Of a DNA stretch of 64,000 nt, positions 40,021-41,336 are shown piece by piece; positions within the stretch are counted from its first letter, which is position 1, and each line of letters begins with the position of its first letter. The DNA comes from an uncultured Acidobacteriota bacterium (lineage in GTDB: Bacteria; Acidobacteriota; Thermoanaerobaculia; Gp7-AA8), in contig CAVUKB010000007.1 in the NCBI GenBank assembly GCA_963741955.1, positions 992,001-1,056,000 of the forward strand, given 5' to 3'. A program made the translations under genes and the position numbers. The notes beneath the pieces are model-generated. The model was given only the letters and a program-made list of their open reading frames with translations, had not been told where the DNA came from and ran no database searches.

Positions 40021-40380
40021 ATGGCAAATTACTCCATTCTCCCGATCGCAATTCTGATCGTCCTGTCGCTTCCGATCATCACTCTGTTCGTGATCACCCC
40101 GCTCGTTCGGGCGTCCCGAGCTTCGAAAGTGAAGCTCGAGCCTTACGAGTGCGGTGTCGAGGCGACCTCCTTCGCGTTCGACCACCGCTTCTCGGTTCGG
40201 TACTTCCTCATCGCGGTGCTCTTCATCGTCTTCGACGTCGAAACGATCTTCCTCTTTCCCTGGGCGATCCGTTTCCGCCAGCTCGGCTGGTTCGGGGCGA
40301 TCGAGATGGGCCTGTTCATCGCGATTCTCCTGGTCGGCTATTTCTACGCGTGGAAACGAAAGGTGCTGTCATGGGTCTGA
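40021..40380 (+). CDS. nuoA: NADH-quinone oxidoreductase subunit A
   Basis: [26 protein letters not shown]. Confidence 0.97.
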
Positions 40381-41336
40381 TCGAAAACCGCTTCGAGGAG
40401 AACATCCTCACGACGACGGTCGACAGGATCTTCAACTGGGCACGGAGATCGTCTCTCTGGCCGATGCAGTTCGGTCTCGCATGTTGCGCCATCGAGATGA
40501 TGGCGGTGCTCGATCCCCGTCACGACATGGCGAGATTCGGCGCCGAAGTCTTCCGGGCCACGCCGCGCCAGTCGGATCTGATGATCGTCGCCGGAACCGT
40601 GGCCGAGAAGATGGCTCCGATCGTCAAGCGGCTGTACGACCAGATGCCCGATCCGAAATGGGTCATCGCCATGGGATCGTGTGCGACGTGCGGTGGACCC
40701 TACGATACCTACGCCGTGACTCAGGGCGTCGACCGGCTCATCCCGGTGGACGTCTACATCCCCGGCTGCCCGCCGCGTCCCGAAGCTCTCCTGTGGGGGC
40801 TGATGGAGCTCCAGAAGAAGATCGACAAGATGCACGTCCTCCGCAAGGGCGGCGCGGCATACGACTTCGCCCGCCAGGCGGTGCGTGACGTCGTGCGCCC
40901 GCTCCACGAAGGTCCCGCGATCCGGATCAGTGACGCCGCAGCCGAACCGGCCGAAGCTTCCACCCCGGCTGCAGAACCCACTGCCGCGAGCCCGGCTCCG
41001 GCCGAAACGTCTCCTCGAACTGAAGCCCCGGCCCCGCTCCCTGCGCCGACCGGCGCATCCGCCGACGCCGCGTTCCACGACCAGGCGCTCACTCTCGCCG
41101 AGCGGATGAAGCTCGCCGAGGAATCGGGTGGCGGAGTGGTGGCGAAGATGTGGGCCTCGCTGGCACAGACCGACTGCGGCGCGTGCGGATGGGACTGCGA
41201 AGGATACGCGAAGGCCCTCGACGCCGGCGAAGAGAAGGACATCTCGCTCTGCGTTCCCGGCGAGGCGGAAACGATCGAAACGCTCAAGAAGCTGATGGCC
41301 GAAGCCGGCCGGGAGTACACGGTCGGAGCGGCGTAA
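40371..41336 (+). CDS. nuoB: NADH-quinone oxidoreductase subunit B with Pro/Ala linker and C-terminal extra 4-Cys Fe-S domain
   Basis: [38 protein letters not shown]-term [20 protein letters not shown]...ISLCVPG. Confidence 0.95.

Follow-up and report, generated by a model that had tools for sequence, protein, structure and literature searches.

How electrons enter a complex I whose operon encodes none of NuoE, NuoF and NuoG is the question raised by a locus of an uncultured Acidobacteriota bacterium (Thermoanaerobaculia; Gp7-AA8). The locus was analysed as a window of 64,000 nucleotides (assembly GCA_963741955.1, contig CAVUKB010000007.1, positions 992,001-1,056,000), in which the NuoB subunit is extended by a linker and a small domain with four cysteine residues. 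The operon consists of 11 genes in the order nuoA-B-C-D-H-I-J-K-L-M-N, which are contiguous and include no nuoE, nuoF or nuoG, i.e., the gene set of an 11-subunit (N-module-less) enzyme. Nothing lies between nuoD and nuoH; the gene order obtained by a Pfam scan thus agrees with an earlier note, made from the letters of this DNA, that nuoD runs straight into nuoH. For 11-subunit enzymes in general, the donor is described as unknown, and no common donor protein is reported to have been found (PMC11238625).

The NuoB fusion protein

The fusion is encoded by a stop-free frame of 321 amino acids at 40371-41336 (plus strand), the translation of which reads as NuoB, then a linker, then a four-cysteine domain. 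The start of the protein, MGLIENRF, is the same N-terminus as in homologues; the GTG at 40149, which opens the mechanically longest reading frame, was discarded as a start because it falls within nuoA. The gene is positioned between nuoA and nuoC, and the same order is found in related loci.

The regions of the protein, all on the plus strand, are as follows. The NuoB core (residues 1-160; 40371..40850) includes a match to Oxidored_q6 (PF01058) at residues 38-147, for which the protein scores 99.6 bits (Pfam; cut-off 27), and with 238 bits against nuoB_fam TIGR01957 (NCBIfam; cut-off 142.7) the protein belongs to the NuoB family. The best solved match of the core is Nqo6 of Thermus (2fug_6, E 6.6e-65). 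C38, C39, C104 and C133 (CC ... C ... C-P-P), which are taken here to be the ligands of cluster N2, are present and are invariant in 58 sequences (alignment A2). The core is followed by a conserved C-terminal extension (residues 161-184; 40851..40922; Y-D-F-A-R ... H-E-G-P-A), the columns of which from Y164 to A183 are invariant or almost so in 58 sequences. An Ala/Pro/Glu/Ser/Thr-rich linker of ~48 residues comes next (185-232; 40923..41066), with 16 Ala and 10 Pro among the 49 residues counted (184-232) and a net charge of -5 over the region 176-232; among homologues this linker is hypervariable in length and sequence, with internal repeats in P0104. The protein ends in the four-cysteine domain of 89 residues (233-321; 41067..41333; net charge -8), in which a core that matches FeS (PF04060; residues 264-296, 25.7 bits, gathering cut-off 23, E 9.6e-6; Pfam) has a conserved helix on either side. 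The spacing of its cysteines is C269-x2-C272-x3-C276-x17-C294 (codons at 41175..41252, from the translation), and all four are invariant in 58 of 58 aligned homologues (likewise in A1 and A3). Thus, the earlier reading of this frame as a complete NuoB, a Pro/Ala/Glu linker and an extra PF04060-type domain with a CxxCxxxC-x17-C pattern holds at each point, the linker measuring 48 and the domain 89 residues. With these cysteines as presumed ligands, the domain on NuoB most likely binds one [4Fe-4S] cluster.

The fusion is genuine and selectively maintained. Each of the 120 NuoB homologues listed (312-421 aa) is a full-length fusion that is named as NuoB of Thermoanaerobaculia or Acidobacteria; these cover 98-100% of the query at 59-73% identity, with three exceptions in which the best local alignment covers ~60% at 86-88% identity. 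A precomputed PF04060 label is attached to 90 of the 120, and a hidden Markov model built from A3 matched the domain in 407 of the 407 proteins gathered by that stage. Among the 58 aligned sequences, 25 domain columns are invariant, the four cysteines among them, while the linker is by contrast unconserved. Because many independent assemblies carry the fusion in frame, it is no assembly chimera or other assembly artefact. Assembled pieces from public runs (four runs; the best one) cover 40300-41028 and 41105-41450; among the pieces listed none bridges 41029-41104, where the GC-rich linker ends, and nothing is concluded from this gap. The public run search listed no RNA sequencing data for the window.

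A scan of one genome per species revealed at least 453 stretches that encode a relative, of which the best 78 loci were kept, all from metagenome-assembled genomes of Thermoanaerobaculia or Acidobacteriota. The earlier proposal to look for further fusions of NuoB with PF04060 was thereby carried out, and conserved fusions were found in relatives. In 67 of the 78 loci, the domain is linked to nuo genes in the order Methyltransf_28-nuoA-B-C-D-H-I-J-K-L-M-N, and within the extent of each of the 78, NuoE, NuoF and NuoG have no match. By an in-frame test, the domain is carried (i) on NuoB only, as in the window, in 31 of the 78 loci, (ii) on both NuoB and NuoC in 26, and (iii) on NuoC only in two (L086, L087). 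A further eight (L013, L019, L024, L021, L023, L058, L035, L083) are ambiguous, as they are frameshifted, cut off or failed the frame test, and in the remaining 11 the domain is part of a 225-aa stand-alone protein that is not linked to nuo genes.

The spacing and the number of the domains vary among these loci. The gap from the NuoB core to the domain is 73-92 residues, and on NuoC it is 0-129, mostly 27-34. In the relative G007, at least five tandem copies with Ala/Pro linkers between them stand behind NuoB and one more is carried by NuoC; this array is split, with one copy at a contig end (L089:1-2113) and four at the start of the contig that continues nuoC(FeS)-D-H-I (L090:1-1000). The tandem NuoB copies of G007 have an RnfB-like C-x2-C-x4-C-x16-C spacing, the NuoC copy of the same operon x3/x17, and the three tandem copies of P0122 again x4/x16. 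Variable Ala/Pro-rich linkers and tandem copies would be the hallmarks of a mobile carrier.

Relatives and distribution of the four-cysteine domain

In sequence comparisons, the closest kin of the domain is the N-terminal carrier domain of PRK06214-type flavoproteins, not RnfB. An exhaustive search with the 89 residues returned 415 representative clusters at E<=1e-3; 150 were listed and 45 of these were scanned against Pfam. In 29 of the 45, the domain stands on the N-terminal side of FAD_binding_1, NAD_binding_1 may or may not be present, and a flavodoxin domain is absent; the others are fusions to NuoB (one), NuoC (one) and NuoI-type (Fer4) proteins (two), a triple-domain protein (one) and proteins with no other Pfam family (11, several of them fragments or wrong-frame calls). 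The best family match of the domain joins window residues 207-314 to positions 43-146 of NF004859, 'sulfite reductase subunit alpha' (E 4e-26). Identity to the matched stretches of PRK06214-type proteins is 44-53% over ~80 residues, and the helix ahead of the cysteine motif and the C-x2-C-x3-C-x17-C spacing are common to both. In PRK06214-type proteins, the domain occupies the place of the CysJ flavodoxin module; the likeness to CysJ-like flavoproteins that had been pointed out beforehand thus turns out to be the closest kinship. The window domain differs from its flavoprotein counterparts in its C-terminal position on a complex I subunit, its lack of an FAD/NAD module and its net charge (-8 vs a median of 0). 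The window NuoB is no NF004859 protein, since it scores 91.8 bits against a cut-off of 432, matches over the N-terminal domain only, and has no PF00667 or PF00175; the flavoprotein P0177 reaches 700.8 bits. To our knowledge, the function of the PRK06214 N-terminal domain has never been tested. The domain on NuoB is inferred to derive from the carrier domain at the N-terminus of PRK06214-type FAD/NAD(P)H reductases.

Kinship to the N-terminal cluster domain of RnfB, also claimed at the outset, is detected as well. The rnfB family TIGR01944 matches the window domain with E 3.6e-10 and 39.7 bits, under the cut-off of 68.7, and the A3 profile matches 8ahx_B, a solved chain of RnfB (E 0.0037), with the four cysteines aligned and the third shifted by one position (x4/x16 in 8ahx_B vs x3/x17 in the window). 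A search of solved structures with the single domain sequence gave nothing at E<=10; only the profile reached RnfB. Both domains are of the PF04060 family; unlike RnfB, the window protein has no membrane anchor and no ferredoxin-like domains. An identity of the window protein as RnfB was rejected, as TIGR01944 is below cut-off and neither a Fer4 match nor a membrane anchor is present.

Fusions of the domain to NuoI form at least 120 clusters (50-87% identity), and all six with a taxon name are from Verrucomicrobia or Verrucomicrobiota. Eight metagenome loci have the order nuoA-B-C-D-I(FeS), two of which continue H-J-K-L-M-M-N, and NuoE, NuoF and NuoG have no match in the 19 loci of the NuoI-fusion survey. 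The domain has been attached repeatedly to one and the same module of the complex. A tree of 61 copies of the domain, unrooted and with many unresolved forks (82 columns), places the NuoB- and NuoC-fused copies together (support 87/92), those on NuoB being a single clade within this group. The NuoI-fused copies occupy two or more other positions, one of them beside flavoprotein copies (split support 98/89). The tree, which is too short for proof, suggests that the acidobacterial operon captured the domain once and then duplicated it, and that NuoI acquired it in separate events.

Two further features are noted among the relatives. A conserved short motif, A-P-F/L-x2-E-Q-R-x-W-L, precedes the linker in PRK06214-type N-termini and is found inside NuoI-FeS linkers (P0144, P0149, P0177), and a similar one, G-P-A-L-R-A-E-Q-A, is present in the acidobacterial NuoB extension. 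The motif may serve as a docking peptide. In a set of ~250-aa proteins (P0134, P0136, P0137, P0142, P0143, P0145), the domain follows a helical part of 170 residues with no Pfam or NCBIfam match, and these copies form their own clade in the domain tree.

The distribution of the domain was sampled in 201 genomes from the class with a completeness of 90% or more (the tallies include the unpublished genomes G004, G103, G170 and G174). The domain occurs in 87 of the 201. By family, it is found in 42 of 48 genomes of the family to which the window belongs and in 27 of 27, 12 of 19 and 3 of 3 genomes of three others, where the open frames are mostly ~225 aa, i.e., the stand-alone form; in the remaining families, it is found in two genomes only, each with a weak partial match. 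In sister families, the domain forms the end of a protein of 225 aa, the N-terminal part of which is rich in cysteine and belongs to no known family (L075-L082, L084, L085, L088; P0133, P0276). The gene of this protein adjoins a metallo-beta-lactamase-fold gene and is unlinked to nuo, with nothing redox-related around it.

Orthologues of the window operon also occur without the domain. Five of the six domain-less genomes of the own family were searched with the NuoB protein, and four of these (G058, G106, G138 and the unpublished G130) have an orthologous Methyltransf_28-nuoA-B-C-D operon. The NuoB proteins of the four are 81-85% identical and end at ~195-205 aa, just past the conserved extension, which is kept. 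No copy of the domain was found elsewhere in these genomes at E<=1e-6. The domain is therefore an add-on and not obligatory for this type of complex.

Electron entry into the 11-subunit complex

All eight cysteines of NuoI and those of NuoB are kept, which leaves the N6a-N6b-N2 chain intact. NuoI (44336..44860, plus strand; Fer4 families) would house clusters N6a and N6b, and its eight cysteines are invariant (alignment A4). The best solved match of this NuoI is the cyanobacterial NdhI (6hum_I, 99.3 bits; Thermus Nqo9, 77.2). A Lys-rich loop, K87-K92 (44594..44611, plus strand), is the proposed docking site: K87, K90 and K92 align opposite K86, K89 and K91 of Thermosynechococcus elongatus NdhI and are invariant in 29 of 29 NuoI orthologues (A4). 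K86, K89 and K91 of NdhI contact ferredoxin in the Fd-NDH-1L structure (PMC7021789). The median net charge of the domain is -9 when fused to NuoB (n=123) or NuoC (n=4), -5 when fused to NuoI (n=121) and 0 in CysJ-like flavoproteins (n=23). The predicted charges of the acidic domain and of the NuoI lysine loop are complementary.

The domain is proposed to be a mobile, ferredoxin-like tethered [4Fe-4S] shuttle that delivers electrons to N6a, a reading that is held here with slightly more belief than doubt. Such a swinging carrier to NuoI finds indirect support in the linkers, the tandem arrays, the fusions to NuoB, NuoC and NuoI, the acidic charge and the NuoI lysine loop. The acidic NuoB domain on its flexible Ala/Pro linker would act as a built-in ferredoxin that (i) receives electrons from soluble oxidoreductases of low potential, for which 2-oxoacid:ferredoxin oxidoreductases suggest themselves, (ii) docks on the lysine loop of NuoI (K87-K92), and (iii) passes the electron to N6a, from where it would travel to N6b, N2 and quinone. 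An extended linker of 48 residues could span well over 100 Å (~3 Å per residue, own estimate), which is ample from the NuoB C-terminus to the apex. The domain-less orthologues show that electrons can enter the core enzyme without the domain, presumably from free ferredoxin. On this view, the tether would not be essential but would improve the kinetics or channel the electrons.

The genome, which is 99.1% complete, has six matches to PF01855 (2-oxoacid:ferredoxin oxidoreductase), one of them a 1242-codon PFOR-type frame, and no match to RnfD/NqrB. The presence of 2-oxoacid:ferredoxin oxidoreductases with no Rnf fits a physiology compatible with a tethered ferredoxin. A CysJ-like donor in the own genome was rejected, as FAD_binding_1 (PF00667) has no match there; NAD_binding_1 has one weak match.

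The window operon is the second complex I of the genome, an N-module-less 11-subunit one. The single nuoF of the genome belongs to another, complete nuo set, with nuoA-E-F and nuoG-H-J-K-L-M-N on contig 5 and nuoB-CD-I on contig 4. The lack of NuoEFG that the earlier note described thus stands for the operon and fails for the genome. A nuoEFG module elsewhere that co-purifies while the extra domain is dispensable had been named in that note as a finding that would speak against it; nuoEFG are present elsewhere, although this is a formal match only, as these genes have their own partners in the other set. NuoF was found in 85 of 89 family genomes (a tally that includes the unpublished G174 and G130), and because it is so nearly universal, the suggested co-occurrence of the fusion with nuoEFG absence proved uninformative.

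Several points weigh against the tethered shuttle. The PF04060 score of the domain is just 2.7 bits over the cut-off, which is marginal for a single sequence. The four domain-less orthologous operons imply a complex that evidently works without the domain. The lysine loop is suggestive rather than diagnostic, as two basic residues also occur in the paralogous NuoI of the 14-subunit set of the same genome (E, R and K at the three positions, in a loop that is six residues shorter). The donor type of the closest relatives of the domain, an FAD_binding_1 protein, is missing from the own genome. A neighbourhood search in the window found no donor gene, i.e., nothing redox-related that is conserved beside the operon, and downstream of the verrucomicrobial nuoABCDI operons there is likewise nothing redox-related and no conserved gene of this kind. 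With nuoEFG in the other nuo set and NuoF in nearly all family genomes, no link between the domain and N-module absence can be drawn at the genome level. The limit of the proposal is that cluster binding, mobility, docking site, direction of electron flow and donor are all deduced from sequence.

Some of these points would also suit a domain that is off the main electron path and senses redox state or oxygen, has a regulatory role or helps in Q-module assembly (cluster delivery, chaperoning), while free ferredoxin feeds the enzyme. The domain-less orthologous operons of the same family give the core enzyme another way in, the NuoI lysine loop would suit free ferredoxin equally well, and an assembly-factor-like methyltransferase gene is conserved beside the operon. 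An off-path role is nevertheless considered unlikely: tandem arrays of three to at least five copies, and two domains per complex in 26 of the 78 loci, are hard to square with a sensor, the acidic shift specific to complex-I-fused copies fits docking at a basic electron-entry site, and in its other protein contexts the domain holds a position that calls for an electron carrier.

Less credible still is that the complex runs in reverse, with the proton motive force driving quinol electrons up to the tethered low-potential cluster and on to ferredoxin-dependent enzymes, so that the domain would be an output arm. Complex I is reversible, the PRK06214-type relatives would by their architecture deliver electrons to acceptors rather than collect them, and the genome has many ferredoxin-type enzymes. 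Nothing points to a demand for reduced ferredoxin, though nitrogenase or similar enzymes were not searched for, and a heterotroph that has several 2-oxoacid:ferredoxin oxidoreductases but lacks Rnf has more need of an outlet for reduced carriers than of a supply; reverse operation is thus judged improbable. It is very unlikely that the 11-subunit core borrows NuoEFG from the other nuo set and that the domain is an expendable ornament or a link to that module. The genome does have nuoEFG, and NuoF is widespread in the family, but the module sits in a set that has nuoA, B, CD, H, I, J, K, L, M and N of its own and there is only one nuoF, the window NuoI is nearest to the ferredoxin-dependent NdhI, and among three of the four NuoF-less family genomes that were checked (two 99-100% and one 95% complete), G150 and G170 still have two domain copies (the assemblies are fragmented and G170 is unpublished).

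The proposal of a tethered shuttle on NuoB can be widened to the enzyme type as a whole, although this wider form is tentative and leans towards doubt. Here, one to at least six tethered [4Fe-4S] carriers per enzyme would have been recruited more than once (to NuoB and NuoC in Acidobacteriota, and to NuoI in Verrucomicrobiota) from PRK06214-type reductases. As swinging arms, these carriers would take electrons from several soluble low-potential dehydrogenases to N6a and would replace NuoEFG and a diffusible ferredoxin.

Neighbouring genes, known systems and significance

The other genes of the operon are found on the plus strand and include nuoA (40021..40380; PF00507, 114.6 bits), nuoC (41359..42117; PF00329, 154.2 bits), nuoD (42121..43236; PF00346, 341.4 bits), nuoH (43249..44334; PF00146, 408.8 bits) and the membrane arm genes nuoJ, K, L, M and N (44857..51250; PF00499, PF00420, and PF00361 three times). 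The NuoC of the window, of 252 aa, has no Fe-S domain, unlike that of many relatives. Directly upstream of nuoA is a gene of the Methyltransf_28 family (NDUFAF7-like; 38785..39957, plus strand; PF02636, 93.2 bits), a homologue of which is upstream of nuoA in 58 of the 67 nuo-linked related loci. Seven of the nine loci without it end too near nuoA to reveal one (e.g., ~150 bases upstream in L026 and ~700 in L072); L067 and L068, with 4.9-8.9 kb upstream of nuoA, have no Methyltransf_28 gene. NDUFAF7, a mitochondrial complex I assembly factor of the Methyltransf_28 family, methylates an arginine of the NuoD homologue. The linkage of the methyltransferase gene is a hint that a bacterial complex I of 11 subunits may be methylated on arginine as well.

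Further from the operon, two tandem H+-pyrophosphatase genes are located upstream (31744-33816, 690 aa; 34232-36730, 832 aa) and the ATP synthase genes atpI, atpB and atpE downstream (~54050-55808); with the nuo operon in between, these make up an island of bioenergetic genes. The stretch between nuoN and the atpI-like gene (51298-53930) consists of ~2.6 kb of non-coding tandem repeats of 70% G+C, in units of ~167-374 bp with 14- and 28-bp sub-repeats; no frame in it has a third-position bias, though several stay open for 400-980 codons. Two other loci of the own genome were noted. On contig 4 (L009, ~437800-444750) is a group-4-hydrogenase-like or Mbx-like cluster, in which one gene fuses a two-cluster ferredoxin domain to a NuoB-like subunit (255 aa) and another fuses NuoC- and NuoD-like subunits. 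On contig 10 (L007:5107-9609), a 1500-aa frame with several Pyr_redox_2/FAD modules, Fer4_20 and Fer4 is directly upstream of the genes for the small and large subunits of a NiFe hydrogenase.

Among known systems, the arrangement resembles the swinging arms of lipoyl (2-oxoacid dehydrogenase E2), acyl carrier protein and biotinyl domains, which are likewise small domains on Ala/Pro linkers in variable tandem copy number. These have no sequence kinship to the window domain, and their cargo is a covalently bound substrate rather than electrons carried by an Fe-S cluster. The NDH-1 of cyanobacteria and chloroplasts shares with the window the lack of NuoEFG in the operon, and the window NuoI is nearest to NdhI with the three ferredoxin-binding lysines kept. 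While the carrier of NDH-1 is a diffusible [2Fe-2S] ferredoxin assisted by NdhS, V and O, the window would have a [4Fe-4S]-type domain that is covalently tethered, as far as the genes tell. The complex I-like enzymes with 11 subunits found in anaerobes such as Desulfitobacterium hafniense have the same gene set and a donor that is likewise open; in the accessible part of their description, no tethered Fe-S domain is mentioned and the only fusion named is nuoCD (PMC11238625). No published description of NuoB, NuoC or NuoI fusions with the four-cysteine domain was found in a literature search that was mostly at the abstract level and covered journals outside subscription. Thus, while the N-module-less complex I is already known, a tethered Fe-S domain on its subunits is apparently undescribed.

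The fusion is a likely electron-entry device that is written into the subunits of an N-module-less complex I in two abundant soil phyla, the Acidobacteriota and Verrucomicrobiota. It bears on the question of the electron donor of the 11-subunit complex I in non-photosynthetic bacteria, which is open (PMC11238625). The natural series of zero, one, two and at least six domain copies, the 89-residue domain and the predicted docking loop of NuoI are defined objects for this question. If the tethered shuttle is true, the complex would have a covalently tethered Fe-S swinging arm in multiple copies, a design so far known for lipoyl, biotinyl and acyl carriers, and a role would be assigned to the unexplained N-terminal domain of the large 'sulfite reductase alpha' family.

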